Assembly (NCBI GenBank): GCA_964571295.1
Contig: CAZNAO010000001.1
Span: 3,749 to 67,748 of the forward strand
Length of the DNA: 64,000 nt
DNA from: an uncultured Gammaproteobacteria bacterium
GTDB taxonomy: Bacteria; Patescibacteriota; Patescibacteriia; Magasanikbacterales; UBA922
Reading direction: 5' to 3'
Shown: in pieces, positions 4,014 to 55,540 of the stretch
Layout of the letters: each line of letters starts with the position of its first letter
Numbering within the stretch: the stretch's first letter is position 1
Made by a program: the position numbers and the translations under genes
Notes under the pieces: model-generated
What the model saw: only the letters and a program-made list of their open reading frames with translations
Told to the model about the DNA's origin: nothing
Databases searched by the model: none

Positions 4014-4026
4014 ATTCTTACTCTCA

Positions 4027-4431: not shown

Positions 4432-4440
4432 ATGATCGGA

Positions 4441-4839: not shown

Positions 4840-4850
4840 AGTATTGAATT

Positions 4851-5237: not shown

Positions 5238-5259
5238 ACGATAATCTGAAATTATGTTT

Positions 5260-5652: not shown

Positions 5653-5653
5653 A

Positions 5654-6286: not shown

Positions 6287-6316
6287 ACGATAGAAAAAAT
6301 TATTATTCTATTTACG

Positions 6317-6733: not shown

Positions 6734-6840
6734 GGATTGAATTACTCACAGTTTTCCCGGCTTATTGTAACATACTAAGTCAGGAAAACTGTGATACCAT
6801 ATACTGTTTGGCATATGGTTCACAATATTTGTTCTGAAAC

Positions 6841-7275: not shown

Positions 7276-7339
7276 CCCCTTTCAATGTATGATATTTTTT
7301 CATACGCGTCACGTATTTTACGTGATGTGTTATTTACAC

Positions 7340-7987: not shown

Positions 7988-7993
7988 ATGATT

Positions 7994-9202
7994 TTAAAAT
8001 GGAAGTAGACTCGACTGAATTCCAATCGCTTTTACCACAAATCCAATAAGGATATACGCAGAAAAAGTAATAATAAGTCCCAAGGTTGCCGCTACCAAGA
8101 TTTGCTTCCCCTGTCCCACTTTTTCCGCATTTCCAAATGACATGATCATGGTGATCCCGCCATACACGAAGAAGACAAAAGCGAGTCCTGCAATCACGGA
8201 GAAAAGCCACTCTGCCACCTTTACCCCCAACTCAACCAGGTCTTCTACATTTCGACATGACCCATCCCATGCACAGTCCGGAAGTGGACCATTGTAATTT
8301 GCAGGTTTTTGATGTGTACTTGATATCCACGCATCTATTGCCTCGGAAGTATTCACCTGCACGATCCTGTCTACACATTTTTCATTATCCCCTATCTTAC
8401 AGTGCAGCACTTTAGTACATGTATTTGGATCCAACTCACTACATTTGGTTGTATTATCTGACTTAGAGATGCATTTTGCACCTGTCTGCCACCACAGACA
8501 CGCCGCATCCGCATTACACTGCTCTACATTTGCTCCGTATTTACTTTGACAAGCTGTATTGGTCGGCGGATAATCATTGTTACCCGCTATTTTCATGAAA
8601 TAGACAAACACTTCATCCGGATTCTGGTCCAATTCACAAAACCAGTATCTGGTACGAAATAACTCGTCATCTCCCTCAATTGCGCTTTCTTGTGCAAAAT
8701 GATATTTGGTTACCAAATCATCTGGCTCATTGTCAGGATATGCACCGCTATTACAGCCGCGATCTGCGCTATTATTCCCTTCAAAAATCCACTCACCATT
8801 TTCTTCACCCGGACTCATTCTGAATTGTCTGATCACATCCTCATCACCCCATTCTGGACTTATGATTTTATTTCCCGTGACATTGACCCCATTGATGAGA
8901 TCTGTCCACTCCGCCCATGTTTTATCTTTTGCCACGGTTACACAAAAAAATTCACCTCGGTTATCTTTGGGATGGTGTGTCTGATAATCAAAATCCTCAT
9001 TAGTCTGATGACTTCCATTAAATTTTTCTCCATTTGGGCGAGTTATCTTAAAAATGGCAATTTGTTGATTTTCATTCGGTGCTACCGGACATTTGAATCC
9101 TTTTAAATCCACAGGATATTCAGCTGCTACGGCACTTCCTGTCCATGCACCAAATGCGAGAAGTAGTGCGATAATATATATGTTGACTTTTCTATATCTC
9201 AT
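7994..9202 (-). CDS. large TrbC/VirB2-type pilin-like fusion: unknown ~300-aa N-terminal ectodomain plus C-terminal pilin core, paralog 10
   Basis: Signal peptide and a long Cys-containing extracellular region, with C-terminal core WLFSVIAGLAFVFFVYGGITMIMSFGNAEKVGQGKQILVAATLGLIITFSAYILIGFV. The N-terminal domain is paralogous to that of 10695..11738 (YPVDLKGFKCPVAPNENQQIAIFK vs YTVNLGDFKCPQAPENNRKIAIFK). Confidence 0.7.
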   Translation of the reverse strand: MRYRKVNIYIIALLLAFGAWTGSAVAAEYPVDLKGFKCPVAPNENQQIAIFKITRPNGEKFNGSHQTNEDFDYQTHHPKDNRGEFFCVTVAKDKTWAEWTDLINGVNVTGNKIISPEWGDEDVIRQFRMSPGEENGEWIFEGNNSADRGCNSGAYPDNEPDDLVTKYHFAQESAIEGDDELFRTRYWFCELDQNPDEVFVYFMKIAGNNDYPPTNTACQSKYGANVEQCNADAACLWWQTGAKCISKSDNTTKCSELDPNTCTKVLHCKIGDNEKCVDRIVQVNTSEAIDAWISSTHQKPANYNGPLPDCAWDGSCRNVEDLVELGVKVAEWLFSVIAGLAFVFFVYGGITMIMSFGNAEKVGQGKQILVAATLGLIITFSAYILIGFVVKAIGIQSSLLPF

Positions 9203-9210
9203 ATATCAAA

Positions 9211-10596
9211 TCAATAGGTTTGCTGAATTTTTGCCGCCGTATTTATGATTACCGACTTATCTTTTCTCAGTGTTTCTTCCGGAGTATTTCCCTGTCTCAG
9301 AAACTCGGTTATCATATCTTTCAATGCAGTGGTCGCCACATCCACTTCTCGTCCTCGATACCAATTTTCTGCAAAGAGTGCCTGTGTCGCAAATGGACCC
9401 AGTGTTTCATTCTCCTGTTGTGCCGTAATCTGTTCCCGATACGGACTTGGCCTGAATGTGGCAGTCACGTATTGCTGCACTTTTTCTTTCGAGGTAATAA
9501 AATTCACGAAGCCCCATGCCTCATTCTGATTCTGGGATTTTTTCACGACTGATTCCACCCAATAATTGGCAACGTTTACCGGTGTTTCCGGATTGAGTTG
9601 TGGAATAGTTGCAATCTTGATCGCGAGCTGTGGAGCGCGCGCTTGCAATCTCGGATAATCATACGCGAATCCAAGGAAAAATGCCGTGCGACCTCTCACG
9701 AATTCGTCAAACGCATTTTGCATACGATCATTCCAGCTATACCGATCTGCGGTCGCTCGTGCGAAACCGGTATAGAAATCGAGCGCTCGGATGGTCGAGT
9801 GTGTCCGACTCTGATCTCGATCAACTCCAGAGGCAAATGCTACCGTATCCCCGTCTGTCACTTTTGACCCACTTTGAAGCATGAGTAGTGCAACAATGTC
9901 TGCAAAATTATCGATATTATTCGATGTGCCCATCGCGACTCCCGATTGGATTATATCGAGCGTAGCACTGAATTTCGTCGTCTGTTGCACCGCACGTACA
10001 AACTCATCCCAGGTCTTTGGAGCTTCCGCAATACCCGAGCGATCAAGAATCGTCTGATTGTAGAACAATGCAAGCGAATCAAGGGCCATCGGAAGGCCGA
10101 AAATACCTTCATTGATAATGATATCTTTTGCGACCGTCTGGACATACTGATTTCGAATGTCACGTTCCCGGGGAAGTGATACCGTATCCACCACCACTTC
10201 CTGCTCTTTGGTATATTGATTCTTGGTTATCAGACGTGGTAATTGTACCGATGCAGGTGCCGCAGCAAGTCTGCTTTCATTCTTCCTAAGCCACCGAACA
10301 TGCATCGATACGATATCCGGACCCACATCATCCGCAAGCGCATTGGTGAACAATGAATCGAATTCTTCATACCGTACTTGTCGAATATTGATCGTTACAT
10401 GCGGATAACGCGCTGAATACTCCACTGCATACGCTCGCAATTGTTCGACATCTCCGTAGACCGTCCAATAATTCAAAGTGATCGGACGGAGTGATGCCCG
10501 CTCTTCCTGATTCAATCCTTTACAACCAAAACCACTGAATATCAAAAGAACACTCAACACTCCCAAGGATAGTAGCGATGTAACTTTTTTCCTCAT
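9211..10596 (-). CDS. ABC-transporter extracellular solute-binding lipoprotein (family-1 SBP, sugar-type)
   Basis: Signal peptide with lipobox LIFSGFGC and a 461-aa periplasmic-binding-protein-like product. It lies between the two large pilin-fusion paralogs. Confidence 0.65.
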   Translation of the reverse strand: MRKKVTSLLSLGVLSVLLIFSGFGCKGLNQEERASLRPITLNYWTVYGDVEQLRAYAVEYSARYPHVTINIRQVRYEEFDSLFTNALADDVGPDIVSMHVRWLRKNESRLAAAPASVQLPRLITKNQYTKEQEVVVDTVSLPRERDIRNQYVQTVAKDIIINEGIFGLPMALDSLALFYNQTILDRSGIAEAPKTWDEFVRAVQQTTKFSATLDIIQSGVAMGTSNNIDNFADIVALLMLQSGSKVTDGDTVAFASGVDRDQSRTHSTIRALDFYTGFARATADRYSWNDRMQNAFDEFVRGRTAFFLGFAYDYPRLQARAPQLAIKIATIPQLNPETPVNVANYWVESVVKKSQNQNEAWGFVNFITSKEKVQQYVTATFRPSPYREQITAQQENETLGPFATQALFAENWYRGREVDVATTALKDMITEFLRQGNTPEETLRKDKSVIINTAAKIQQTY

Positions 10597-10611
10597 AACA
10601 TTCCATCTTAA

Positions 10612-10685
10612 GTCGAAAGTCTGTAAAGTCGAAAGTCTGTAAAGTAATTGGTGTTTTGGTTTATGGACTTTAAGACTTTACGGAC
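10612..10685. repeat. intergenic repeat: perfect tandem 16-mer GTCGAAAGTCTGTAAA x2 (10612-10643) plus the inverted, related GGACTTTAAGACTTTACGGAC (10665-10685)
   Basis: Read directly from the sequence. Related motifs occur at 12634-12694 and 31099-31170. Confidence 0.8.
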
Positions 10686-10694
10686 GTTATAGGC

Positions 10695-11738
10695 TCATTT
10701 AAATATTTCAAATATAAATCCTACCAGTGCGTAACTTGCAAAAATAAGCGCTACCCCCAGGGTCGCCCACACTATCGTATTTTGCGCTTTCGTCTGAGTT
10801 TCCGAATTTCCCCGGGCGGTCATCCACAATACTCCACCATAAATGATCATTATGAGTGCAATGGTACCGATTATCCCAAGCACCCCTCGAATGAGCATTC
10901 CCACAAACTGAGAAAGATCTGTCGTCTGAAGCAGATTCAATCTCCGGGCATATTCGGATAGATTACTTGTTCCACCCGTACTTGAACTCGTATTTCCTCC
11001 TGAATTTGAAGAAGGTGTCGAAGACGCGGAGGGGTCATCTGGCGCAGGATAGTCTTCTTTCTCCGCAATTTTCATAAAATACACAAAAGCCTGTTCAACC
11101 CCATGACCTTCATCACTGGGAATGCCGTAAAAATAAAATCTTACTCGCGGAGCAAGATTTGCCTCCTGCTCCGAAAGAGGTCCACACCCATACAAAAACG
11201 TAGGCAAACATGTTTGGGCAAAATGATACATTACATCGTTATCGTCCGGTTCATCATTGGCATCTGAGGATCCCATCACCTCGTTCCAACCATAACCAGT
11301 TCCGTCTGCTTGTCGTTCATCCTTCCACTCGTCGTCTACATAAAATTGTCTAATCACATCTTCATTTCCCCATTCAGTAGGAACTAGTTTTTGCCCCACA
11401 ATATCAACCCCCTGGGTCAGATCATTCCATGTCGCTGAGTTTCGATTCTTATCTACCGTTATGCAGAAAAATCGCCCGGAGTCGAGTTTCGGCTGATGTT
11501 CTACTGTATTATAATGCTCTGTCTCTTCTCCATCATCATCAAACTCTGTCGCACCATTGGCCACATCCGGGATAACCAATTTGAAAATCGCTATTTTTCT
11601 GTTGTTCTCCGGAGCCTGCGGACATTTAAAATCACCAAGATTGACTGTATACGGCTCTGTTGCGGCCACACTTCCCGTCCACGCACACCACAACATCATG
11701 GTTGCCGCGATATATGAATAAACTGCCGTTTTGGTCAT
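10695..11738 (-). CDS. large TrbC/VirB2-type pilin-like fusion with the shared N-terminal ectodomain, paralog 11
   Basis: Paralog of 7994..9202 across the N-terminal domain (GRFFCITVDKNRNSATWNDLTQGVDIVGQKLVPTEWGNEDVIRQF vs GEFFCVTVAKDKTWAEWTDLINGVNVTGNKIISPEWGDEDVIRQF). Ser/Thr/Gly-rich linker, then core VLGIIGTIALIMIIYGGVLWMTARGNSETQTKAQNTIVWATLGVALIFASYALVGFI. Confidence 0.7.
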   Translation of the reverse strand: MTKTAVYSYIAATMMLWCAWTGSVAATEPYTVNLGDFKCPQAPENNRKIAIFKLVIPDVANGATEFDDDGEETEHYNTVEHQPKLDSGRFFCITVDKNRNSATWNDLTQGVDIVGQKLVPTEWGNEDVIRQFYVDDEWKDERQADGTGYGWNEVMGSSDANDEPDDNDVMYHFAQTCLPTFLYGCGPLSEQEANLAPRVRFYFYGIPSDEGHGVEQAFVYFMKIAEKEDYPAPDDPSASSTPSSNSGGNTSSSTGGTSNLSEYARRLNLLQTTDLSQFVGMLIRGVLGIIGTIALIMIIYGGVLWMTARGNSETQTKAQNTIVWATLGVALIFASYALVGFIFEIFK

Positions 11739-17459: not shown

Positions 17460-17900
17460 TTAAAACGGAATGTCTTCTACTTTGATCTCATCATCGCCCA
17501 CTGCCTGTGGAGGCTCTGACCGGCTATCTTCTTTATTTCCACCGAACACTTCTCCAGATGGAGCTCCGCCTCGCGGCGCATCCAACATGATCAAATTTTC
17601 CGCTATGATTTCAGTACGGTATCGTTTGACCCCATCTTGACCTGTCCAATCACGGGTTTCAAGACGTCCTTCGAGGTATACCCGCCGTCCTTTGCCGAGA
17701 TACTGACCGGCGATATCCGCAAGCTTTCCCCACAATACCACATTATGATATTCCGGACGTTCCTGACGCGTTCCTGATGCATCTTTCCATACCCTACTCG
17801 TCGCAACACCGATATTTGCGACACTTTGCCCAGAGGGCGTGCTTTTGACTTCTGGGTCACGGGTGAGGCGACCGAGAATAGTAGCTCGATTCAGATCCAT
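17460..17900 (-). CDS. ssb: single-stranded DNA-binding protein
   Basis: OB-fold N-terminus (MDLNRATILGRLTRDPEV...VVLWGKLA), a Gly-rich tail and an acidic C-terminal DIPF. Confidence 0.9.
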   Translation of the reverse strand: MDLNRATILGRLTRDPEVKSTPSGQSVANIGVATSRVWKDASGTRQERPEYHNVVLWGKLADIAGQYLGKGRRVYLEGRLETRDWTGQDGVKRYRTEIIAENLIMLDAPRGGAPSGEVFGGNKEDSRSEPPQAVGDDEIKVEDIPF

Positions 17901-18735: not shown

Positions 18736-20532
18736 TTGAAATTTAAGTTGGATGAGATCATTTATCAAAAATATGATATACTATCTCCGTACATTGGATT
18801 TCATTCCATTTTTCTTATGTTACCCTTGGACGAACTCAAGCTTCTCTTGACCAAAAAATTCAAATTAAGCACGGGAGATATTACTACCTACCTTGAAGAA
18901 GCGAAGAGTCGAGGAAAGGATCTTGAAACATATCTTATTGAGAAAAATATACTCAAAGAGGACGTTCTTTACGATACGATTGCCGAGGTTTTTGGTTTTT
19001 CCCGAATCACCTTAAAAGGCAAAGATATCCCCCCTGAAGTCTTACACGAACTACCTGAAGCATTTGCTGAGGCACATACCATTATCGCATTCGAGAAAAC
19101 CGACCACATTCTTCGTGTTGCGCTTACCGATCCTACTGACATCCAAACTATCGAATTCATCAAGCGCAAGACACGAAAAGACGTGGAGGTGTTTGTTGCA
19201 ACCTCGCGAGATATCCGTGAAGCGCTTCGGAAATATCGGCTGGATCTGAAACAGGAGTTGAGTCAACCACTGTCCCATAATGATTCGACTGATCTCAAAA
19301 AAGCCGCTGAGGAGCTGCCTATTATCAATATCGTTAAAACTATTCTCGAGCATTCAGTATTTGAAAATTCAAGTGATATCCATATTGAACCGACCGAGGG
19401 TGACGTAGTCGTTCGATTTAGAATCGACGGCATTCTTCGGGAGATGATGCATTTACCAAAACCGGTACAAAATGGCATTGTCGCACGCATTAAAATTCTT
19501 TCAAACCTGAAGATTGACGAGCACATGATTCCACAAGATGGACGTTTCAAAATTTCAGTCCAGGGCGAAACATTATCGTTTCGCGTGTCGATCATTCCGG
19601 TCTATGACGGCGAAAAGATTGTCATGCGTCTTCTCCACGAAGGACAAAAACCTCTTACACTCGATGAACTCGGATTTTTACCCGGTATCAAAGAACTGGT
19701 GGAGGAGTCGATCGAGAAACCGCACGGCATGGTTCTCGTCACTGGTCCGACCGGATCTGGAAAAACAACCACACTCTATTCTCTTCTCGGCATGCTCAAT
19801 CAGCCAGATGTAAATATCTGCACTATCGAAGACCCGATCGAGTATCATGTGGGTGGTATTAATCAAAGCCAGATCAATCCTAAAGCCGGATTTACGTTTG
19901 CCTCAGGACTTCGCGCATTCCTCAGACAAGACCCAGATATTATTATGGTCGGAGAAATTCGTGACAAAGAAACTGCAGAAATTGCGATCCATGCCGCGAT
20001 GACTGGACACCTCGTACTTTCAACCCTCCACACCAACGACGCTCCGACCACGCTTCCACGCTTACTCGACATGGATATTCCACCGTTTTTAGTGGCATTC
20101 ACTTCAAATATCATTATTGCTCAGCGATTGGTCAGAAAAATTTGCCCGAATTGTAAAGAATCCTTCAAATTGAGTGGCAAAGAATTGAAGCAAATTCACA
20201 CACTTATTGACCGATCTACCATGACCTCGTTATTCAAACAATATAAAATTCCGTTTTCCGCAAAAGAAAAAACTTTGGAATCCATGACGTTTTACCGAGG
20301 TAAAGGGTGTAAGAAATGCAGTAATTCAGGATATAAAGGTCGTATTGGTATTTACGAAGTCATGGTAATTGACGAAGGACTCCAAAAAATTATCAATACG
20401 AATGCCACAGCGACCGATATCAAAACACACGCACTAAAACACGGTATGATTACCCTCTTTCAGGATGGATTTCTCAAGGCAAAACAAGGAATCACCACGA
20501 TTGAAGAAATCTTACGCGCAACCAAAGACTAG
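18736..20532 (+). CDS. pilB: type IV pilus assembly ATPase PilB (GspE family)
   Basis: GspE-N domains, Walker A VLVTGPTGSGKTTTLYS, Asp box, and a CxxC...CxxC zinc motif (CPNC...CKKC). The first codon is TTG; the alternative ATG is at 18817. Confidence 0.85.
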   Translation: MKFKLDEIIYQKYDILSPYIGFHSIFLMLPLDELKLLLTKKFKLSTGDITTYLEEAKSRGKDLETYLIEKNILKEDVLYDTIAEVFGFSRITLKGKDIPPEVLHELPEAFAEAHTIIAFEKTDHILRVALTDPTDIQTIEFIKRKTRKDVEVFVATSRDIREALRKYRLDLKQELSQPLSHNDSTDLKKAAEELPIINIVKTILEHSVFENSSDIHIEPTEGDVVVRFRIDGILREMMHLPKPVQNGIVARIKILSNLKIDEHMIPQDGRFKISVQGETLSFRVSIIPVYDGEKIVMRLLHEGQKPLTLDELGFLPGIKELVEESIEKPHGMVLVTGPTGSGKTTTLYSLLGMLNQPDVNICTIEDPIEYHVGGINQSQINPKAGFTFASGLRAFLRQDPDIIMVGEIRDKETAEIAIHAAMTGHLVLSTLHTNDAPTTLPRLLDMDIPPFLVAFTSNIIIAQRLVRKICPNCKESFKLSGKELKQIHTLIDRSTMTSLFKQYKIPFSAKEKTLESMTFYRGKGCKKCSNSGYKGRIGIYEVMVIDEGLQKIINTNATATDIKTHALKHGMITLFQDGFLKAKQGITTIEEILRATKD

Positions 20533-20538
20533 TATAGT

Positions 20539-21660
20539 ATGGCAGACGCTTATTCATTTGCACAACCTACTTCCCAACCACGAGGCCTCAATGCGTTTAT
20601 GCTGGAGCACGTTACTCGCGTTCCATTGGTCGATCGTATTTTTTTTCTTGACCATCTACGTACCATGATTCATGCCGGTCTTTCCCTGGTCGAAGGACTT
20701 CATGTCTTGAGCAAAGAAACACAAAACAAAAAATTATTACATATCGTCGGAGACATTACTGCATACGTAGAAAAAGGGAATCAGTTGAGCGATGCCTTGA
20801 AACGATATCCTAAAATTTTTCCCGATCTTCAGACTACGATGATCGCTTCAGGTGAGATTGCTGGACAACTTGAAGAATCTTTGGAGCAGGTGGTCACACA
20901 AATGAAAAAAAGTCATGCTCTGACTTCGAGTATTAAAGGTGCCATGATTTACCCTGCAGTCGTGGTTTCTGCGATTGTGGTTATTGGTATTCTCATGGTC
21001 ACACTGGTATTGCCCAAGATCATCTCTCTATTCGATGAATTTGACGCTGAACTCCCACTTGCTACGCGCATCCTTATTGCCGTTACCAATTTTCTCTCAA
21101 AACCACTCAATTTGATTCTTATTTTTGCAGGAATTCTTGGTTTAATTACCTTATTTGTCTCCCTGCTTAAATCAAACATCTCGTTCAGGCGATCCGTGCA
21201 CACGCTTATCCTCAAACTTCCCATTGTTGGTCCTATTTCAAAAAAAATTAATCTTGCTCGTTTCTCAATCACACTTGCCTCTCTCCTCAAAAGCACCATT
21301 CCAATCGTGGATGCACTCCATATTTCTGCACAAACTTGTAAAAACATGCTTTACCGAGAAGCACTCGAGGCGGCAACACAAACGTTATCAAAAGGAGAGC
21401 AACTTTCTGACATTCTTTCGCAAAAACCCGAGCTGTTTCCTCCCATGGTTACTGAGATGGTCATGGTCGGTGAAAAAACCGGAGAAATCGATCACCTGCT
21501 TCAAGAATTATCTTCGTTCTATTCTGATGAAGTTGATAAAATTATGAAGAATTTCGCGACTATTATTGAACCTGTCGTAATTATTCTTCTCGGTCTTGGA
21601 GTTGCCGGAATTGCAGTTGCAGTCGTCATGCCAATGATGTCGTTAACCCAAAGTTTCTAA
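20539..21660 (+). CDS. pilC: type IV pilus platform protein PilC (GspF family)
   Basis: Two GspF repeats and three TM segments (e.g. MIYPAVVVSAIVVIGILMVTLVLP). Confidence 0.8.
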   Translation: MADAYSFAQPTSQPRGLNAFMLEHVTRVPLVDRIFFLDHLRTMIHAGLSLVEGLHVLSKETQNKKLLHIVGDITAYVEKGNQLSDALKRYPKIFPDLQTTMIASGEIAGQLEESLEQVVTQMKKSHALTSSIKGAMIYPAVVVSAIVVIGILMVTLVLPKIISLFDEFDAELPLATRILIAVTNFLSKPLNLILIFAGILGLITLFVSLLKSNISFRRSVHTLILKLPIVGPISKKINLARFSITLASLLKSTIPIVDALHISAQTCKNMLYREALEAATQTLSKGEQLSDILSQKPELFPPMVTEMVMVGEKTGEIDHLLQELSSFYSDEVDKIMKNFATIIEPVVIILLGLGVAGIAVAVVMPMMSLTQSF

Positions 21661-21664
21661 TCAC

Positions 21665-22774
21665 ATGCTCATACACTTATTCCCGCACGCATTCGGAATT
21701 GATATCGGAGACCGATCTGTAAAACTGGTCCAGCTTAGAAATAGTCCCAAACTCAGAACCACAGCATTTGAACCGGTCGCGATGCGTATGTGCCCCCTAG
21801 CACCCGGATTGATAGTCAATGGTATTATCGAGCAACCTGAACTTGTACGACGAGAAATCGCCAAACTGCTCCACGGGATGCGAAAAGGCGAACGTCCAAT
21901 CAAAAGTCCCTGGGTAGTTGCCTCGGTTCCGGAAAATCATAGTTTTCTTAAACTCATCTCCATACCCGGAATGCAGCTTGAAAATGTGGACACATTTGAC
22001 CCTGCGCCATATGTTTCAACCTATTTACCGGTTGACGATCTCGACAGCTACACCCTTGATTGGCACGTAGTGCACCAAGAAGAACCCACGTCAGACGTGC
22101 AAGTTTTGGTGGGCGCTATTCCGAAACGTATCGCAGACAGCTACACGTATCTACTGGAAAGTCTGGGGCTGGGGGTTATGGCACTCGAGATCGAAGAAGT
22201 CGCAATTGCGCGATCCATGGTGACCGCACGAAAACAATACAATGAGGAAGCACGTGCCATTGTCGACATCGGATCCACACGCACGCAGGTTATCATTTAT
22301 GATCACGATATTATTCAATTCTCTACCGTACTCCCCTTTTCTGGGGAGATGCTTACTCGTATAGTCATGGACGCAACCAAGCTCGGAGCAGAACAAGCGG
22401 AGCAAGCAAAAAAAGAAGTCGGTCTTGATATTTCAAAAGACAAAAAAATTTCAGCTGCACTCCTCAAAGCAGTAAAAGAATTTAGAAAATCTCTGACACA
22501 CACCCTATCTTCATATTATGGTCATAATACCATATCCGCGAATCGAATCACTCGAATTGTGCTCTGTGGCGGCGCCGGCAATTTACCACATCTTGACGTA
22601 TTCCTCGCCGAAGAACTGGGAATTGAATGTGTCCATGGTAACGTATGGAAAAATTTGAGTATTGACCCGAAACACGCCCCGGTTGACAACGCAACAGCGC
22701 TCTCATACGCAACAGCAATCGGCCTGGCACTCAGAGCCGCAGACAATCCTTTTAACACGAGAGATACCATTTAG
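21665..22774 (+). CDS. pilM: type IV pilus assembly protein PilM (actin-like ATPase)
   Basis: FGIDIGDRSVKLVQL and ...VDIGSTRTQVIIY... actin-fold motifs. Confidence 0.75.
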   Translation: MLIHLFPHAFGIDIGDRSVKLVQLRNSPKLRTTAFEPVAMRMCPLAPGLIVNGIIEQPELVRREIAKLLHGMRKGERPIKSPWVVASVPENHSFLKLISIPGMQLENVDTFDPAPYVSTYLPVDDLDSYTLDWHVVHQEEPTSDVQVLVGAIPKRIADSYTYLLESLGLGVMALEIEEVAIARSMVTARKQYNEEARAIVDIGSTRTQVIIYDHDIIQFSTVLPFSGEMLTRIVMDATKLGAEQAEQAKKEVGLDISKDKKISAALLKAVKEFRKSLTHTLSSYYGHNTISANRITRIVLCGGAGNLPHLDVFLAEELGIECVHGNVWKNLSIDPKHAPVDNATALSYATAIGLALRAADNPFNTRDTI

Positions 22775-22777
22775 CAT

Positions 22778-23308
22778 ATGATGTTCCCGATTCGCATCAA
22801 CGTATTGTCCGCATCGAAAAAGAGACATCTTCGACATCTTACCTTGTTTACGTACATCAAAAGTGCATGTGCAGTCGTGTTTTCACTTCTTGGTATTCTC
22901 GCTGCTCTACTTCTGGTCGTACAAAATTTTTTTATTGATTACCAGAACGCACTTTCGTATACTGCATTCGGAGCACCCCCATCACACCATGAAGATACCA
23001 AAAAAGTCGATAATGCAAATAAAAATCTCAAGCGTATTGGTGCGGTACAACAAGGATTTATACTATGGTCACCTCGTATCGATACAATACTTCGTGCATT
23101 GCCTCGGGGTGTTACCGTACACTCGGTTTCATTTGACCATGAGCTCAATCAATTTTCATTGGCCGGCATTGCTGATACCCGCCAAACCCTAGAAGCAACG
23201 GAAGCAGCGCTCACATCACTTTCGATTCTCGAATCAGTGACTATTCCACCCGGTGATCTAACCCAGCGCGAACTGATTTCATTTACCGTCGAAGCGGCAC
23301 TCAAATAG
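22778..23308 (+). CDS. pilN: PilN-like bitopic pilus assembly protein
   Basis: Single TM segment (AVVFSLLGILAALLLVV) followed by a periplasmic domain; sits immediately after pilM. Confidence 0.6.
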   Translation: MMFPIRINVLSASKKRHLRHLTLFTYIKSACAVVFSLLGILAALLLVVQNFFIDYQNALSYTAFGAPPSHHEDTKKVDNANKNLKRIGAVQQGFILWSPRIDTILRALPRGVTVHSVSFDHELNQFSLAGIADTRQTLEATEAALTSLSILESVTIPPGDLTQRELISFTVEAALK

Positions 23309-25377: not shown

Positions 25378-25443
25378 CACGCTGCCACGTTTTTGAGATT
25401 AATAGACACAGTGTTCGCTCTTTTTCTCAACCCGGAGGACCAC

Positions 25444-25839
25444 ATGGATCCCTTACTCTATGTTAAGGACGTCGAACGACGTCTCACGTGTGTGCACTCG
25501 AAATACACCCGACTCAAATGGTACTTCCTCATCCTGGTTTGCTTCGCCCTCGGCGTCGCAGTTGCAGGTGTGGTGCACGTAAGCTTGAACGCGCGACTCA
25601 AGGACGAAATCCAGACACGGCCGGTCAGCGGATTCGTGATCCGCAAAGACCGCAGTGCGGTGTACTTCATCACCGACGACCACAAGGCGATGTTCTTCAC
25701 CGGATGTCCCGGTATCCAGAACTATACCTTCCGATACGGTGAACGGATCGTCGTCTACGGCGACCATGACCACACCTGCCTCAAGTGGCTTGCGCCGGAG
25801 AATCCTACCCACCATGACCAGACCTTCTCGAAGCGATAA
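25444..25839 (+). CDS. hypothetical membrane-anchored protein (high-GC island)
   Basis: GGAGGA SD 4 nt before ATG 25444 and a TM segment WYFLILVCFALGVAVAGVV. G+C is visibly higher than in the flanks. Confidence 0.5.
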   Translation: MDPLLYVKDVERRLTCVHSKYTRLKWYFLILVCFALGVAVAGVVHVSLNARLKDEIQTRPVSGFVIRKDRSAVYFITDDHKAMFFTGCPGIQNYTFRYGERIVVYGDHDHTCLKWLAPENPTHHDQTFSKR

Positions 25840-25884
25840 CGGGCGCTCGAAGCCCTGGTGCATGCCGTCGGTTGACACCACACG

Positions 25885-25947
25885 AACACCTTTACACCGT
25901 CCGCATGCCTTTGCTATTCCGAATACGTTCGGAATAGCACAGGAGCC
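25885..25947. terminator. two-level bidirectional terminator hairpin
   Basis: CACCGTCCGC/GCGGACGGTG outer stem enclosing CTATTCCGAA-tacg-TTCGGAATAG, followed by TTTT. Confidence 0.6.
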
Positions 25948-25963
25948 GCGGACGGTGTTTTAG

Positions 25964-27540: not shown

Positions 27541-27662
27541 AGAAAAAGTTTAGCCTATAAAAGTCTGCTGATTATAGCGAAAATGGGTGAAATTGTCAAA
27601 GGTAAAAAATCCCTATAAAAAAACAATTGACCCTGCTATACTACCCCCAACCTATTACTTCT

Positions 27663-30359: not shown

Positions 30360-30494
30360 TCGCTCGTCAGTCTGGTGCAAATTTTGACCTCAAAAAAATA
30401 CGCGAGTTCGTTCGCGTATTTTTTGTATTTTTGATGAAGACCGGGAATACCTGCGGAAGCTCGTGCTTCTACAGGCATCCCGGCGGCAGATGAT

Positions 30495-30935
30495 CTATGC
30501 CACGGCCATGGCGTACTTCCGTACGATGTTCTGGAAGAACGTTTCCCCATACCGGTCGTCGACTTCGATCACCGCGACTGCGAGCCCTGCGAGCTCGCTT
30601 TGCTCCTTTTCCCGACCGTACCGGTCGAGTTGTCTGAAGTTGGTCACCACCTTGACCCCTCCACGTCCGCTTCGTCTGCCGACGATCCAGTCGAGAAGGA
30701 AACGCGAATCTGCTCTGGTGCACCATTCTCCCACTTCGGAAACGAGGACGTAGACCACGTCTGCGGCGACCAGATCATTCGGTTCGATACTCCGGTACAG
30801 TGGGGCAAGCACTTCGTCGCCCCACGGATCCCGAGTCTTACCTCCGAGTGAGTTGACCACCAGTTTGTGGTTGTGTCTGTTGTAGACCTTGCGCCCGACC
30901 GGAACTTCCGGCACAGGACCGAACGTAATGATCAT
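30495..30935 (-). CDS. hypothetical protein (high-GC island)
   Basis: Longest ORF in a G+C-rich block (about 30360-30950); ATG at 30935 (MIITFGPVPEV...). No family recognised; strand choice is tentative. Confidence 0.35.
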   Translation of the reverse strand: MIITFGPVPEVPVGRKVYNRHNHKLVVNSLGGKTRDPWGDEVLAPLYRSIEPNDLVAADVVYVLVSEVGEWCTRADSRFLLDWIVGRRSGRGGVKVVTNFRQLDRYGREKEQSELAGLAVAVIEVDDRYGETFFQNIVRKYAMAVA

Positions 30936-31098
30936 CTCAAACAAAGTTTTATCCCTTTGCCGACATCGATGCTGCGGAAGCTACCTGCGTGTCCGGGATG
31001 TGTTCCCCCGAACCAACCCGTATCCACAAACATGATACCAGCCTATGCCCGCTCCTCCTTTATCGCGGACTGTATTGTGACTATAACATATTTTAGTT

Positions 31099-36092: not shown

Positions 36093-37193
36093 CTAATTGT
36101 CAAGCTGCGGCTTATCGAGAACCTCCGGCGCGACGCTCTTTTCGGTCGTACCGGTAATCCGGACCACATCTTTATCGATTTTTCCGAGTTCTTTATAGGC
36201 CGTATTGAAATGATTCACGGTCGTCGACATGCTTGCGCCGAGCTTCTTCATATATTCCTCATATGCCTGGATATGCTTGCCGAGCATCTCCACATTCTTC
36301 TTGATCACCTTGGCGCCTTCTTCGATCTTCAGAGCCCGGAGACCCTGCAACACGGTCTGCAGATATGCGGCGAACGTAGTTGGTGACACGATGATCACTT
36401 TCCGTTCGTTGAATGCATAGTCGATCAGATTGCGCGTATTTACTTTCACAGCACCCACTTCATTAATCAGAAGATCGTAATAAATTGCTTCAGAAGGAAT
36501 AAACATGAACGCGAATTCGAGCGTACCCGCATTCGGTTTGATATATTTGCTCGTCTCATCAATTCGTTTCTTCAAATCGTTCTTGAACTCTTTCTCAAGC
36601 ACATCACGGTTCGGTCCTTCTGGTTCATGGATCAGTCGCTCATAGTTATCAAGAGAAAATTTGGCGTCGACCGGAATCAGTCCGTCCTTGGTAAATATGG
36701 CGGCGTCAACCGTATCCCCGTCTTCGAATTGATATTGCAATTTGAACGCGGTCGGCGGAAGCATATTCTCAAGAACCAGATTCAATCCTGCTTCACCCAG
36801 ATTCCCACGCTGCTTCTGATGCTTCAATACTTTTTCGAGATTACTCAATTGTGCTGAGAACCCGATCACTTGCTGATTGGTCTTGTCGAGGGTTGTCAGC
36901 TTTTCGGTAATATCTGTAATGATCTTTGAACTCTGTGCAAATTGCGTCTGAATCGTCTGGTGCAGATGCTGCTGCCCGTCGCCGACGATTTTATAGGTTT
37001 CGGAAATTTTTACATCGATCGTTTTTTGGAGATCCTGCAGCTGTTGCTGGAACATGAGAAAAATTGCTTTTTCTTCTTCGGGATTTTCCTTCTTTGCTTG
37101 CGCAGCATCATTCATTTTTTTATACAGCATAAGTAGGGCACCAAACATTGCGATAAGTAGCACGGCAAATAACATCAACAATCCTGTTTGCAT
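36093..37193 (-). CDS. rmuC: DNA recombination protein RmuC
   Basis: N-terminal TM segment and coiled coil, then the conserved KQRGNLGEAGLNLVLE motif of RmuC. Confidence 0.8.
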   Translation of the reverse strand: MQTGLLMLFAVLLIAMFGALLMLYKKMNDAAQAKKENPEEEKAIFLMFQQQLQDLQKTIDVKISETYKIVGDGQQHLHQTIQTQFAQSSKIITDITEKLTTLDKTNQQVIGFSAQLSNLEKVLKHQKQRGNLGEAGLNLVLENMLPPTAFKLQYQFEDGDTVDAAIFTKDGLIPVDAKFSLDNYERLIHEPEGPNRDVLEKEFKNDLKKRIDETSKYIKPNAGTLEFAFMFIPSEAIYYDLLINEVGAVKVNTRNLIDYAFNERKVIIVSPTTFAAYLQTVLQGLRALKIEEGAKVIKKNVEMLGKHIQAYEEYMKKLGASMSTTVNHFNTAYKELGKIDKDVVRITGTTEKSVAPEVLDKPQLDN

Positions 37194-37333: not shown

Positions 37334-37520
37334 AGTATTTTCCATAGTATCACAAATTCTTCATTATGTCATTCCCGCGCATGCGGGAATCCAGATAGAA
37401 TTTAAAACAAAAAGACACCACAGCTGTGATGTACTCTTGATTTGGGCGGAGTTGTTAGGCGACAACTCCGCGATGATGTTCTGTTTTACTTCCCTGCCAA
37501 GGAGAAGGAGCATAAATTGC

Positions 37521-38000
37521 TCAGATGTAGATGATCTTCCGCTTGCTACCGTTCACCCAGTACAGTAGCGGTCGTTCCTTATCACTGGGAATCTCCCAGC
37601 GCCCGACGAATTCGGGCGGAAGCGGTACCGTCGCCGCATAGTCCGACAAGAAACGAACTTTCGCATCTTCGTGCCCGACGCGGAATGCAACGAGCTCACC
37701 GCCTCGAAACGTCTTTCCGAGGAGTGCGAGGCGCTGTCCGGTATAGACATCGAAGGCGATACGCACCTCACCCTGGTAGATCTCCGGGATCTGCATGCAG
37801 ACCCAGGTCTTCCATGATCCACGCCGATGCTTTCCGGCACGGACGTTTTTGTTTCCCTCGTACCACAGCGCGTTTGAGACACCACGGAACCGAGGGTCCG
37901 GTCGACGGATGAAGCACCACCCGCTCGTAAAGAGACGCATGAGCGCCTGCACGAACAGAGTCGAGAGCACCCACTGAAAGAATCGATTCTTCGTCATCAT
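37521..38000 (-). CDS. hypothetical protein (high-GC island)
   Basis: ATG-ATG start preceded by AAAGGAGA. The protein is Trp/Arg-rich; no family recognised. Together with the next gene it forms a G+C-rich block at 37500-38720. Confidence 0.5.
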   Translation of the reverse strand: MMTKNRFFQWVLSTLFVQALMRLFTSGWCFIRRPDPRFRGVSNALWYEGNKNVRAGKHRRGSWKTWVCMQIPEIYQGEVRIAFDVYTGQRLALLGKTFRGGELVAFRVGHEDAKVRFLSDYAATVPLPPEFVGRWEIPSDKERPLLYWVNGSKRKIIYI

Positions 38001-38042
38001 TTCTCCTTTTATCTAGAGCACCTCATGAAGGTTGCTGCGGTT

Positions 38043-38642
38043 TCAGTCTCGATGTGAGATTCTCGCCAGAGCACGATCGTCTCTCCTGTCCATTGAAGTG
38101 CGCCACCGCCGATACTTCGACGAGAGCGCAATCGCGAGGAGTAGAAAGACAATCCAGAGTGCGAGCATGATCAGATGTCCTTTCAATGCTCCGGCCCACC
38201 AAGCAAGAGCGATTGAGAGTACCCAGCCGATGGTGTAATCGAGCGGCACGCGACCGATCCACTTGACCGTCTGGTGCCACCAGATGTTCTCCTTCCGGAA
38301 CCTACCCACTCCGTACGCCGGATTGAGCACGAACCAGAGGAAGTCCCACACTGGACACCACGCGAAGTACATCGCGAGCGTCCTGAGTTCGGCTTCGAGC
38401 GACCACTCGACCATGCCCGCGAACGGGAGATGAAAAAGTGTGGGCACGAAGACAAACATGAGCGCGTGGTAGCCAGTCAGCGGTCGGCCACCCATGAGCA
38501 TACCGTAAAACTTTGCCGAGAAGCCACGGGTACGATACCACGTGGGCAATTTCTCCGCCCAGCCGTACCGACCCTCGACCTCGATTTCGATCATAGCGAT
38601 CAAAACCGCCAGAATGAAATAAAACACTGCGGTCCCGAACAT
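38043..38642 (-). CDS. hypothetical polytopic membrane protein (high-GC island)
   Basis: Start taken at ATG 38642 (MFGTAVFYFILAVLIAMIEIEV...) with SD AAGGAGGG 5 nt upstream. Five to six hydrophobic segments. Confidence 0.55.
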   Translation of the reverse strand: MFGTAVFYFILAVLIAMIEIEVEGRYGWAEKLPTWYRTRGFSAKFYGMLMGGRPLTGYHALMFVFVPTLFHLPFAGMVEWSLEAELRTLAMYFAWCPVWDFLWFVLNPAYGVGRFRKENIWWHQTVKWIGRVPLDYTIGWVLSIALAWWAGALKGHLIMLALWIVFLLLAIALSSKYRRWRTSMDRRDDRALARISHRD

Positions 38643-38736
38643 ACACCCTCCTTGATTGGGACCACATACTATACCACAATATACAGAAAAAGTCAATCCA
38701 CCCTTCGGCATCTGTCTATCCTGACTTAATCATGTT

Positions 38737-39556: not shown

Positions 39557-39597
39557 AACCTGTTTCATGTGAAACAGGGTGAAAAAACTTTTATTGA

Positions 39598-39669
39598 GTC
39601 CCCGTAGTTCAATGGATAGAATAGGACACTCCTAACGTCCTGATACAGGTTCGATTCCTGTCGGGGATA
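39598..39669 (+). tRNA. tRNA-Arg (anticodon CCT)
   Basis: Acceptor GTCCCCG/CGGGGAT (G1-U72 wobble), D-arm as in the first tRNA-Arg, anticodon stem GGACA/CGTCC (A31-C39 mismatch) with loop CTCCTAA, T-arm ACAGG-TTCGATT-CCTGT, discriminator A. Followed by a terminator hairpin at 39708-39731. Confidence 0.75.
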
Positions 39670-40170
39670 CATAGTAGGGCACTGGTTGGATAATTAACAG
39701 ACTTAAAAATCCCTTACTAAGGGATTTTATTTGTACTTAATGCACTTGGTTTATTAGTGATTCCTACCTTTAACCAAGGCATGCACACGTAAATAAATAT
39801 TGTACGACGCTTATTTTTATTTTAAACTAGCAAATTTTATAACATAGGGGGAGTTTGATCTCCCCCGTTGCCCTAGTCTACCCTTCCTTGCACCCGTTCC
39901 TGGGCTTCCTTCTCCTCACAGGGTTTGCACACCTCCACTTCGCGATCTTCGAGTGGTCGCTTCTCATGAAGCGTACTCGCCCTGCATTCAGGACACCACT
40001 TCCATGTTCCTTTGCCGTGCACCATGTCACACTCTCCTTGTCACCCGACCCCTTTCGGGCATTGTTTCGGGTATAGAGTATCATTTTTACTGGGCCCAAA
40101 CAATCTTTCCACCCAGACATTGATTTTATCTGGTTTTTCTGATACACTCTGCTACACATTATTGCGTACT

Positions 40171-41244: not shown

Positions 41245-41525
41245 CTTCCTCCGTGATTCCCGCACCTGCTTACGCGAGTGCAGACTCCAACGGGAATCTG
41301 AAGTTGTAGATAAAAAAATCCCCGCCCCCCGATCATGTCGAGAACAAATTTCACGGGGATGACGAAATAAAAATCCGCCTTATGGCGGTTTTATGTTACC
41401 TTTCGCTCTCTTTACACTACACTTTCAGAGCTCATCAGTACCGATTATATCGGCAGAGGTACGCCGTTGTTGAGAGGTACGGCTAACCTCTCTCCATTTT
41501 ACGAAACGGAGACAAAACTTCACTT

Positions 41526-41876
41526 TCAGCCCACCTGCTCCTGCGCCTCCTTGATGACCTTGTCCAGGTTCAGCTGATCTTGATACTGCCGCGCAACCTC
41601 TCTGAGGAGGTCAGGCAGCTGGTCGAGCATGAGGACGAGATCCCGGATATCTTCCTCCGAGAGCGGCTTCACCGAGCGATGAATACCGCGCCCCTCGGAA
41701 TACTTCACGTATCCCGCTTCTTCGCTCCCGACCTGGACCTCCCAGGCTAGACCAGGGCACTTGTCCCTGATCGTCTCAGAGAGATGCGCGATCTTCTCGA
41801 CCAAGTATGCTTTTTTGTCTTTCTTTCCTTCCACGCCCATTCTCCTTCGCGGTTCATAATCCGCGTTGTCATGCAC
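41526..41876 (-). CDS. hypothetical protein (high-GC island)
   Basis: Acidic, helical 116-aa product. G+C is higher than in the flanks. No family recognised. Confidence 0.4.
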   Translation of the reverse strand: MHDNADYEPRRRMGVEGKKDKKAYLVEKIAHLSETIRDKCPGLAWEVQVGSEEAGYVKYSEGRGIHRSVKPLSEEDIRDLVLMLDQLPDLLREVARQYQDQLNLDKVIKEAQEQVG

Positions 41877-41976
41877 ACCAGTGTATATACTATGGATACT
41901 AATAGCCGCACTGGCATGTATGACAAAATAACTTGTTCAAAAGAACAAGTTATTTAATACTATTTTCCTCTTCCTG

Positions 41977-42950: not shown

Positions 42951-43119
42951 ATAACAAATGCTCCTTTAGAGGTTACTAATATAGATACTATACACTATTT
43001 TATGCGTTTTGTCAAGAAAAAACAGTAATTTTAGTGAATTTGGAAGACCTCGCACCACCAACTTCCTTTCTTTACAAAGGAAGAGTTGATGCGAGATCTT
43101 CAGTGCAGATGTAGCAGGT

Positions 43120-43407
43120 TCAGCCGATGTGGCTGTACCCGTAGCGGTCCTGCGGGTTGCCGTCCTTCAGGTGGAAGTGCAGCACGCCGTGGGAACGCGG
43201 ATCGATCCTGATCGCGTGGTGCGGGATGATCATCTCACCCTCGACCTTACCGAAGACCATCTGCTTGGTCCTCGACTTGTTGAAGACAGTGCACTTGCCG
43301 CTCGCGTCGACACGGCACTCGATCTGCCCACTCACGTGAACGACCTGCTTGGTACGCTTGCTGCCCCCCCGACGAGGTGGGAACTTGATCTTCTGCGGTT
43401 GCGTCAT
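43120..43407 (-). CDS. hypothetical protein (high-GC island; strand uncertain)
   Basis: G+C-rich block at 43100-43500 with overlapping ORFs on both strands (43120..43407 minus, 43129..43497 plus). No family recognised. Confidence 0.25.
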   Translation of the reverse strand: MTQPQKIKFPPRRGGSKRTKQVVHVSGQIECRVDASGKCTVFNKSRTKQMVFGKVEGEMIIPHHAIRIDPRSHGVLHFHLKDGNPQDRYGYSHIG

Positions 43408-43539
43408 GACGGTTTTCCTCGCTATTCTGCAGTGCGCATCTATGGAACCACCCGGCTCACACAGAGGTGCACACTAGTAAACATGAAAATCGCCTAGTTG
43501 TCAATAATACTTGTTTGCAAAGATTCTGTTTTTCCTTTA

Positions 43540-43570
43540 TTATCCACACCATCCACAGGTAATCCACACT
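43540..43570. promoter_or_regulatory. DnaA-box cluster upstream of dnaA
   Basis: TTATCCACA (43540-43548), then ATCCACAG and AATCCACAC in tandem, in an AT-rich context. Confidence 0.6.
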
Positions 43571-54751: not shown

Positions 54752-55540
54752 ATGTTCAGCAAAAACTTCGTTTTCATGATCATCATCCTTCTCGGTGCGT
54801 GTGATGCGGACTACTACGTCGAAGACAGTGATCCGCAACATGGGATCGTCGAGGTCTCCCGGTGCATCGACAGCTTCACCTGTCCCGCGGGGTACGAGTG
54901 TGGTTTTGATCATCGGTGTGTTTTGGTCGAGAGTCAGGAAGAACAAAAAGTGCTTCTCGATCCTGAGTGCAGCGACGAGATCGATTACGTCGTCCGATCT
55001 GTATATCCTCGCACGCCTGATTCTGTCGGGTATGGGGTGGTGGTGAAACTCTCTGACATGGAGAGTGTCCAGGATGTCGAGCTTCTTGAGTTCGAGATCA
55101 GCGCCTGTCGGTACATCACCTTCGACCATCCTTCTGTGTGGATCGAATCGTATGGAGTTTCCGTAGACGAGGAAAATCAGAACGCTGCTGACCCTGAAGG
55201 TGTTATCCTTCCGGACTGGTCGACGAGGTTTTACGACTTTACCATCACTGAAGATGGCGAGGTTGTGTACTACGAAGAGGTTCCTCATGAGATGACTGTT
55301 GCAGATACTAACTGTAGCGCCCAGTTCCATCAGGGTTCTCCTCGAGCGATGGTACCTGGTGAGACGGTAGTATTCACGTTCAGTGCCTCGATCCGTTCGG
55401 AGTTTCCTACCTCGTCCTCGTTCACTGTGGGTGAGCCTCGCTTAGGTTTCAGCATGCCACCGAGTCCGAACCCGTTCGATCGACGTGTTCCGTGGGGTAC
55501 GCACATCACGTATCCACAGATGGTCTTGATCGTTCCTTAG
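54752..55540 (+). CDS. hypothetical acidic lipoprotein (higher G+C)
   Basis: AGGAGG SD 6 nt upstream. Signal plus lipobox MIIILLGAC. Cys-containing acidic product; no family recognised. Terminator hairpin at 55571-55600. Confidence 0.65.
   Translation: MFSKNFVFMIIILLGACDADYYVEDSDPQHGIVEVSRCIDSFTCPAGYECGFDHRCVLVESQEEQKVLLDPECSDEIDYVVRSVYPRTPDSVGYGVVVKLSDMESVQDVELLEFEISACRYITFDHPSVWIESYGVSVDEENQNAADPEGVILPDWSTRFYDFTITEDGEVVYYEEVPHEMTVADTNCSAQFHQGSPRAMVPGETVVFTFSASIRSEFPTSSSFTVGEPRLGFSMPPSPNPFDRRVPWGTHITYPQMVLIVP

Follow-up and report, generated by a model that had tools for sequence, protein, structure and literature searches.

Why does a 64-kb stretch of an otherwise rather AT-rich Magasanikbacterales genome carry a handful of short GC-rich patches, each about the size of a gene or two? 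The stretch, which we call the window, comprises 64,000 nucleotides of contig CAZNAO010000001.1 (GCA_964571295.1), and an earlier note on it had proposed that the patches were acquired piecemeal from a high-GC donor, possibly a host, or else were simply open reading frames (ORFs) with an unusual amino acid composition. Our data, which consist of these 64 kb of one genome and of short contigs from its relatives, show that the seven stretches hold eight protein-coding genes of 50 to 262 amino acids, here called islet genes. Their GC excess is synonymous and their sequence signature non-native, their orthologs are conserved in place in the nearest relative, and their slots turn over at greater distance. 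As to their history, including the direction and source of any transfer, we infer, tentatively and with a little less than even confidence, that they are small accessory genes from a GC-richer gene pool, long resident in this lineage and subject to slot turnover and allele exchange.

Eight genes with a synonymous GC excess

Numbered as islands 1 to 7 in positional order (Table 1), the patches measure 52.2% to 57.9% G+C, with z-scores of 2.5 to 6.1 against same-length windows outside the claimed stretches. No such window reaches the G+C content of six of the seven, and 0.17% of them reach that of the 231-bp stretch at 39870-40100. The GC-normalized dinucleotide signature of the seven stretches, concatenated, deviates as well, with a δ* (× 1,000) of 131 versus 38 ± 13 (maximum, 83) for random native sets. 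The mid-50s values of the earlier note were thus borne out by windowed statistics; its background of roughly 40% was too low, the window as a whole measuring 44.3%.

The eight islet ORFs are real genes. All of them show 3-periodic composition, and substitutions relative to the sequences of relatives are concentrated at third codon positions in seven of the eight, with p149 being too diverged for nucleotide alignment. The ratio of nonsynonymous to synonymous divergence (dN/dS) is 0.08 to 0.23 for five genes (0.18 for p116) and 0.40 for p149, with p50 and p262 lacking an estimate. A clear ribosome-binding site (Shine-Dalgarno sequence) precedes six of the eight. The strong hairpins that had been noticed at the patches are indeed present, downstream of the genes: one lies 3' of every islet gene except p199, which abuts p159. 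A clear T-run in the style of an intrinsic terminator follows the hairpins of p149, which has two hairpins, one of them with the T-run, and of p262, which also has a Shine-Dalgarno sequence upstream. Downstream of p148, whose true start is M18 at position 25444, the hairpins are nested, and a 160-nt stretch folds at −67.7 kcal/mol. The hairpins are mutually unrelated in sequence. Each islet gene thus apparently forms its own unit, a single-gene islet. As the earlier note had surmised, each stretch holds one or two ORFs of unknown function; none matched Pfam, PHROG, NCBIfam, or PADLOC.

Several other candidates were rejected. In island 6, the codon-position pattern of substitutions supports the minus-strand gene p95 and not the plus-strand ORF at 43129-43497, and in islands 1 and 3 the same pattern rules out the antisense ORFs. 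Island 4 was considered as a structured RNA and gave no Rfam match at an E value of ≤1; the frame periodicity of the differences there instead revealed the zinc-ribbon ORF p50.

Table 1. Patches, islet genes, and associated features, with positions in the window unless a contig is named. GC3, G+C fraction at third codon positions; z, z-score; aa, amino acids; TM, transmembrane
Feature	Position	Strand	Description	Composition	Ortholog in GCA_964457885.1 (aa identity; GC3)	Substitutions at codon position 3 vs positions 1 and 2
Island 1	25380-25960			G+C 55.2%, z 4.1		
p148 (= p131)	25444..25839	+	131-aa membrane-anchored protein, N-terminal TM helix, small C-terminal beta-barrel (predicted)	GC3 ~0.70	91%; 0.69	26 vs 7 and 5
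Antisense ORF in island 1	25453-25881	-	window equivalent of a public antisense call			
Hairpin, probable terminator	25840..25963	+	downstream of p148, within hypervariable tract 25647-25963	58% GC		
Island 2	30360-30950			G+C 54.7%, z 4.0		
p149	30495..30944	-	149-aa soluble protein; fast-diverging or replaced allele	GC3 0.68, z +7.0	L087:9977-10411, 42%; 0.64-0.65	
Island 3	37500-38720			G+C 55.3%, z 6.1		
p159	37521..38000	-	159-aa Trp/Arg-rich protein, hydrophobic N terminus (anchored)	GC3 0.70, z +7.3	L087/L001, 90%; 0.77	36 vs 10 and 10
p199	38043..38642	-	199-aa polytopic membrane protein, wide unannotated family	GC3 0.66	90%; 0.72	60 vs 14 and 7
Island 4	39870-40100			G+C 54.1%, z 2.5		
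Terminator hairpin of p50	39848-39868					
p50	39873..40025	-	50-aa zinc ribbon (CPEC...CKPC; CxxC...CxxC)	GC 56%, GC3 0.59	L087, 86%; 0.62	differences by frame over 39850-40080 against L087: 16, 4, 6 (the 16 are p50 third positions)
Island 5	41520-41880			G+C 56.2%, z 3.6		
p116	41526..41876	-	acidic soluble protein, ~104-116 aa, start uncertain	GC3 0.71, z +7.2	L173, 80%; 0.63-0.68	41 vs 17 and 14
Island 6	43100-43500			G+C 57.9%, z 4.3		
p95	43120..43407	-	basic protein of 95 aa; lies between rpmH and the DnaA boxes that precede dnaA	GC3 0.86, z +9.6	L173, 88%; 0.86	12 vs 5 and 5
Antisense ORF in island 6	43129-43497	+	window equivalent of a public antisense call			
Island 7	54750-55540			G+C 52.2%, z 3.5		
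p262	54752..55540	+	262-aa acidic Cys-rich predicted lipoprotein	GC3 0.59, z +6.1		
Public antisense call	L089:4947-5333	+	opposite p148			
Public antisense call	L092:9549-9959	-	opposite p148			
Public antisense call	L173:2077-2508	+	opposite p95			
Public antisense call	L002:3612-4070	-	opposite p159			

The excess lies at silent positions. GC3 is 0.59 to 0.86 in the islet genes versus 0.41 in bulk genes (0.34 to 0.47 on the gene map), which corresponds to z-scores of +6.1 to +9.6. Under bulk codon usage, the amino acids of the islet proteins would lead us to expect a G+C fraction of 0.44 to 0.48, compared with the 0.52 to 0.61 observed; the excess is therefore synonymous, and unusual amino acid composition, the fallback that had been offered for the patches, is refuted as their explanation. 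An additional candidate island at 17486-17898 was discarded, as it is the SSB gene, which is GC rich through its amino acid composition, and the ORF noticed there is SSB read out of frame.

Codons ending in G or C are raised in every codon family of the islet genes, third-position A falls to 0.12 versus 0.28 in bulk genes, and the amino acid composition is shifted too, with Arg, Val, and Trp up and Lys, Asn, and Ile down. Codon bias driven by expression was rejected as the cause, since ribosomal proteins, Tig, and SSB do not have the islet codon usage: the set of S6, S18, S20, L34, SSB, and Tig has a GC3 of 0.43, with only TTC, TAC, ATC, and CAG raised, whereas the islet genes additionally raise AAC, GAC, AAG, GAG, GCS, and TCS. 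Like codon-optimized, highly expressed genes, the islet genes prefer C-ending codons for Phe, Tyr, and Ile, a preference weakly common to the ribosomal-type genes here, but theirs is a general rise of GC3 that goes beyond the ribosomal-type codons.

At codon boundaries, the dinucleotide values rho(3|1) of islet and bulk genes correlate with an r of only 0.38, which is below all 200 of 200 same-size subsets of native genes (mean, 0.76). Furthermore, the edges of the GC excess are sharp and limited to the ORFs. The spacers flanking the islet genes have 29% to 48% GC, with the hairpin after p148 as the exception, and among core genes, GC3 does not change with the distance to the nearest islet sequence (rho = −0.01, P = 0.17), bins of 150 to 500 bp being at background.

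Conservation in place, slot turnover, and allele exchange

We designate contigs of relatives by L-numbers; L087, L089, and L173/L174 belong to one genome, GCA_964457885.1, the nearest sequenced relative, whose contigs are syntenic with the window over about 16 to 54 kb. A scan of genome contigs with YchF, which is too conserved for the purpose, yielded 80 taxa, most of them unrelated, and no close relative among them. Seven of the eight islet genes occupy identical slots in that genome and are equally GC3 rich (Table 1); the region of the eighth, p262, is covered by no relative's contig. The synonymous divergence (dS) of core genes between the two genomes is mostly 0.45 to 0.8 but mosaic, ranging from 0.2 to 2.7. 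Four of the five islet genes at 76% to 91% amino acid identity have dS values equal to or below those of their flanks (0.22 to 0.61), with p116 being higher at 0.80. The positional ortholog of p149 is flanked by PolA (98%) and by the gene for a pyridine nucleotide-disulphide oxidoreductase (90%). Its dS is 1.39, with a nonsynonymous divergence (dN) of 0.56, and the neighboring oxidoreductase gene has a dS of 1.24, so that the two genes look to be a replaced or recombined block. On the strength of these sequence comparisons, a recent acquisition by this genome can be excluded for all islet genes except p262. Piecemeal horizontal acquisition, as the earlier note had it, therefore stands with regard to the foreign-like composition and falls with regard to recency, and conserved orthologs of the same composition, which speak against that proposal, are what the nearest lineage holds.

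Bacteria of the Candidate Phyla Radiation (CPR) are thought to be episymbionts, and under a codon-model likelihood the islet codon usage fits genomes with a GC3 of 0.67 to 0.75 better than it fits the native bulk. Both points would suit a scenario in which this genome took up the genes very recently from a high-GC organism, for instance its host. We nevertheless consider such an event highly improbable. For the seven genes, it is contradicted by their presence, in place and equally GC3 rich, in a relative with a core dS of about 0.5, and two of them, p199 and p159, are also found in a relative with near-saturated dS. Homology searches likewise gave no indication that a host was the donor. Among 1.84 billion representative proteins scanned with HMMER, p148 had no true homolog and not even a self-hit, and of the 293 homologs of p199, none of which has a Pfam domain, the closest named ones outside the lineage are Patescibacteria. 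Scans of viral contigs revealed no close relatives of p199, p262, or p149; a profile scan recovered six distant p199 homologs, on AT-rich IMG/VR contigs and at background GC3.

The relative with near-saturated dS, represented by L002, is more distant, with a YchF that is 91% identical and flanking four-fold sites that are 39% to 58% identical; p199 and p159 are in place there. Between the window and L002, only 33% of the four-fold sites of p199 are identical, but their G+C content (GC4) is 0.72 and 0.71, respectively, with flanks at 0.29 to 0.61. GC3 of the p199 orthologs is 0.71 to 0.74 in L001, L002, and L003 (0.73 in L002), and that of their neighbors is 0.25 to 0.57, mostly about 0.45. In L003, which is from Patescibacteria, p199 is 52% identical at the amino acid level and lies in a different gene context, with a GC3 of 0.74 against about 0.45 for most of its neighbors. 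In L002, p159 is about 55% to 60% identical, with a GC3 of 0.58 to 0.66; its ortholog there, at L002:3557-4070, carries a single frameshift and is a pseudogene unless this Logan contig was misassembled.

The slots themselves are not constant. The nearest relative has seven of the eight genes; the more distant L175 and L182 are without them or have other genes in their place. L175, at a distance similar to that of L002, has GC3-rich ORFs of 157, 94, 237, and 91 amino acids in the RmuC|TrmB, TrmB|YchF, YchF|YidD, and L34|DnaA slots, respectively, and tblastn found no match to the window's island proteins in these slots. The slot of p95 is thus taken in L175 by an unrelated 91-amino-acid GC-rich ORF, and that of p116 holds no homolog in L175 and none that we found in its partly sampled counterpart in L182. 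In L182, the L34|DnaA slot is empty (a 206-bp spacer), and a low-GC3 gene follows YidD. Conversely, L089 carries between polA and tig (L089:2234-3055) an extra GC3-rich (0.64) gene for a 273-amino-acid lipoprotein with collagen-like repeats, where the window has an 86-bp spacer (27541-27626). The N terminus of this lipoprotein is weakly similar to p262 (E = 2.6e-4), which lies in a different slot. We considered a p262 family that moves between slots and did not adopt it, given this E value, the restriction of the similarity to the N terminus, and the lack of a match for the 237-amino-acid ORF of L175.

Alleles are exchanged as well. A near-identical strain, L092, shares 99.56% identity with the window over 10.1 kb, and 22 of the 45 differences fall in 25647-25963, which comprises the 3' half of p148 together with the terminator downstream (6 of them in the terminator hairpin). 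In this tract, the alleles of the window, L092, and L089 are about equidistant. The variation may be due to recombination, or the tract may encode a hypervariable surface domain; as the variable tract also spans the noncoding terminator, it fits a recombination tract better than the target of a diversity-generating retroelement. Furthermore, the genes for RmuC (36093-37193) and DnaA (43648-45036) have moderately raised GC3 values of 0.53 and 0.50 (z-scores, 5.2 and 4.4), and their dS values against GCA_964457885.1 are 2.7, which is saturated, and 1.2, compared with about 0.5 for their neighbors. Both have the look of alleles acquired by recombination, with a GC-richer relative as a possible source.

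This coincidence of high GC3 and exchange between strains raises the possibility that GC-biased gene conversion made the islets what they are. In this scenario, the islets are recombination hot spots in which imported alleles are often fixed and G/C-biased heteroduplex repair lifts silent GC. For bacteria, Lassalle et al. (2015, PMC4450053) describe GC3 as linked to recombination, and in high GC3 that coincides with allele exchange the islets resemble genes shaped in that way. The clustering of strain differences in island 1, the mosaic dS between the two genomes, the p149 block, and the RmuC and DnaA alleles all fit this scenario. Against it stand the large size of the shift, its sharp, ORF-limited boundaries, and the absence of any GC3 gradient in neighboring core genes, where extending conversion tracts should be visible. 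Most islet genes have dS values no higher than those of their flanks, and other recombined core genes (those for DnaN, a penicillin-binding protein, and YggU) are not GC3 rich. A GC3 shift of +0.3 or more also seems large for this process in bacteria. Although recombination is evident at islands 1 and 2, we therefore regard GC-biased conversion as an improbable cause of the islets.

Possible import from a GC-richer pool or maintenance in place

The islets look foreign in four respects: their GC3, their GC-independent signature, their sharp edges, and the differences between slots in distant relatives. Their silent sites, and to a lesser extent their amino acid choices, roughly match the make-up of a genome of 55% to 60% GC or more. 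The history that we tentatively prefer, import from a GC-richer pool, would have run as follows. First, the genes would have entered the lineage from such a pool, for which GC-rich relatives in the same radiation, or the mobile elements of those relatives, are candidates. The transfers would have been ORF sized and would predate the divergence of this genome and its nearest sequenced relative. The genes would then have been retained under purifying selection, with slots turning over and alleles being swapped by recombination over longer times. We favor this account because it accommodates the non-native signature, the general shift of both GC3 and amino acids, the sharp edges, and the turnover and allele exchange, and because GC-rich relatives do exist: L113 has 56% GC, with a DnaA that is 77% identical, and L165 has 64% GC. 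In Patescibacteria, genomic islands have been reported, along with gene transfer that is mostly within the group (PMC12455944).

Several of our results weigh against an import. The composition of p199 and p159 has not ameliorated in L002, despite near-saturated four-fold sites; by calculation, neutral amelioration toward a GC3 of about 0.4 at about 0.55 substitutions per silent site and lineage would require an ancestral GC3 of at least 1.0. An undecayed composition of this kind implies either that alleles were reimported or that something maintains the GC content. The seven genes shared with GCA_964457885.1, with dS mostly equal to or below that of the flanks, likewise indicate long residence without decay, and the third-position changes in p148 that can be polarized, a very small sample from the only usable triplet, are balanced (three from GC to AT and three from AT to GC). 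An all-against-all comparison of 160-bp flanks revealed no repeat or element shared among the islets, and no integrase or transposase domain was found in the neighboring genes that were scanned, a scan that did not cover the window exhaustively. The lack of any p148 homolog among the proteins searched belongs here too. Finally, three rankings of potential donors, based on within-class codon preferences, codon-model likelihood, and rho(3|1), did not discriminate.

Much of this would be expected if the islet genes are native and restricted to this lineage, with silent sites that a gene-specific force actively holds G/C rich in place. One candidate force is selection on synonymous sites, for example through a separate translational or mRNA stability regime for conditionally expressed envelope and accessory genes, and the foreign look would then be the product of that force and not of transfer. 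Such maintenance would account for the persistence of p199 and p159 at a GC3 of 0.58 to 0.74 in the window, L087, and L002, for the high GC3 of p199 even in the unrelated context of L003, with its nearest named homologs outside the lineage being Patescibacteria, for the low dS of four of the five comparable genes, for the balanced changes and missing outside homologs of p148, and for a GC excess that ends with the ORF, most spacers having native GC. It is also in line with L113, which, although itself GC richer, still has ORFs with a GC3 above its own background. However, no known mechanism would act on so mixed a set of proteins, and the enrichment extends across all codon families, being neither tRNA specific nor of the expression type. 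The shifted amino acids, the non-native signature at codon boundaries, and the slots of L175 and L182, which are either vacant or filled with unrelated genes, are further difficulties. Moreover, the distant p199 homologs on AT-rich contigs stand at background GC3, so the family as such needs no high GC3. We consider maintenance in place unlikely, although it deserves to be taken seriously next to an import from a GC-richer pool.

Among known categories, alien genes and genomic islets come closest (PMC2671203, PMC12455944). Unusually GC-rich putative alien genes are among the features described for the AT-rich Lawsonia intracellularis (PMC2671203). With such genes, the islets share deviant GC3 and oligonucleotide signatures amid housekeeping genes, small size, lack of a known function, and a seemingly patchy occurrence in more distant relatives. 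Unlike them, the islets are conserved in place in close relatives, and p199 and p159 retain their composition at near-saturated silent divergence. Whereas acquired genes are usually AT richer than the genome that receives them, the islets are GC richer. The hallmarks of classical genomic islands (integrase or transposase, tRNA insertion, and direct repeats) were not found in the scanned neighbors and 160-bp flanks; about 200 bp separate island 4 from a tRNA-Arg gene (39598-39670), and no repeat was found there. Each islet instead comprises a single gene and has no integrase, tRNA-linked end, or repeat. The islets resemble integron cassettes and the "morons" carried by mobile elements in having one promoterless or self-contained small ORF per unit and variable content at fixed positions. 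They differ in lacking a shared attC-like repeat or common flank, in the absence of an integrase from the scanned neighbors, and in slots that are scattered between housekeeping genes and not arrayed; as for morons, only distant homologs of a single islet family, p199, occur on viral contigs. The islets are thus neither integron cassettes, classical islands, nor expression-optimized genes.

Context, occurrence at other loci, and significance

By the names that members of the 90% DnaA cluster carry, the lineage is Candidatus Magasanikbacteria (Patescibacteria/CPR). The neighbors of the islets, which occupy spacers around the replication origin, are conserved housekeeping genes, namely, those for a methyltransferase, YggU, trigger factor, PolA, an oxidoreductase, DoxX, RmuC, TrmB, YchF, YidD, RnpA, L34, DnaA, DnaN, and LspA. 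The replication origin lies at about 43.5 to 45.2 kb, as marked by the GC-skew minimum and by clusters of DnaA boxes at 43540-43568 and 45016-45236. About 9 kb from these clusters, three DnaA-box-like 9-mers with one mismatch each lie within 40 bp (54430-54470) in the 30% GC spacer upstream of p262. In the 5' flank of p50, the 135 bp upstream of ychF (40021-40155) are 100% identical to L087, compared with only about 84% for 39557-40155 as a whole; they may represent a conserved promoter, leader, or structured element, for which Rfam gave no match.

Similar ORFs occur at other Magasanikbacteria-like metagenome loci, with GC3 values of 0.74 to 0.84 in backgrounds of 35% to 43% GC. Most of them have no Pfam match, the exceptions being one PAP2 protein and one with a LeuA-dimer domain, and rRNA was rejected as the cause of these islands, none of which is rRNA. 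The most extreme contrast was seen at L093:4489-5283, L093:7174-7884, and L098:5391-6422, where GC3 is 0.83 to 0.84 and that of long background ORFs is 0.21 to 0.27; two of these three products are predicted to be secreted, and none has a Pfam match.

Four of the eight islet products are membrane proteins or lipoproteins, namely, the anchored beta-barrel p148, the polytopic p199, the Trp/Arg-rich p159 with its anchor, and the predicted lipoprotein p262; the others are one zinc ribbon and three soluble proteins of small size. The AlphaFold2 model of p199 has a predicted local distance difference test score (pLDDT) of 93, with neither a sequence match nor a fold match in the PDB. The model of p148, made from a single sequence (pLDDT 72), shows a transmembrane helix and a small barrel that resembles the oligonucleotide/oligosaccharide-binding (OB) fold, with only generic OB-like fold matches, so we describe p148 tentatively as an anchored OB-like barrel. 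For p262, we found one homolog, P0151 (436 amino acids; 42% identical over 215 amino acids). The share of envelope proteins, together with the hypervariable outer domain of p148, suggests roles at the surface or in host contact. Elsewhere in the window, paralogous pilin-like small proteins are encoded together with type IV pilus genes (T2SSE ATPase, T2SSF, and PilM) at 3546-11738 and 18736-23308. All of these have normal GC3; fast-evolving surface genes are therefore not GC3 rich as a rule.

Our data also have a practical consequence for annotation and homology searches, whichever history applies. In four public assemblies, the gene calls at these loci, annotated as hypothetical proteins, are antisense shadow ORFs (Table 1): opposite p148 in L089 and L092, opposite p95 in L173/L174, and opposite p159 in L002. 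In each case, the codon-position pattern of substitutions places the coding strand opposite to the public call. The real proteins are consequently missing from protein databases, so homology searches understate their spread, and the failure of p148 to find even itself among 1.84 billion proteins is consistent with such miscalling.

A more far-reaching proposal is that Magasanikbacteria-type CPR genomes generally contain a distinct class of small accessory genes, many of them for envelope proteins, whose GC3 of 0.6 to 0.86 against a background of 0.2 to 0.45 would be held by a gene-specific force and not stem from recent transfer. This would amount to a second stable codon regime in a streamlined genome, largely hidden in databases by gene callers that, having been trained on bulk composition, pick the antisense strand. 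We offer it as a doubtful, though conceivable, generalization. If the islets are indeed maintained in place, they would point to unusually strong gene-specific selection or biased repair acting on silent sites in a reduced, symbiont-type genome, and they would mark coregulated or functionally linked envelope genes that may matter for contact with the host. If, as we tentatively prefer, they derive from a GC-rich pool, the islets would trace gene flow between CPR lineages of very different base composition.

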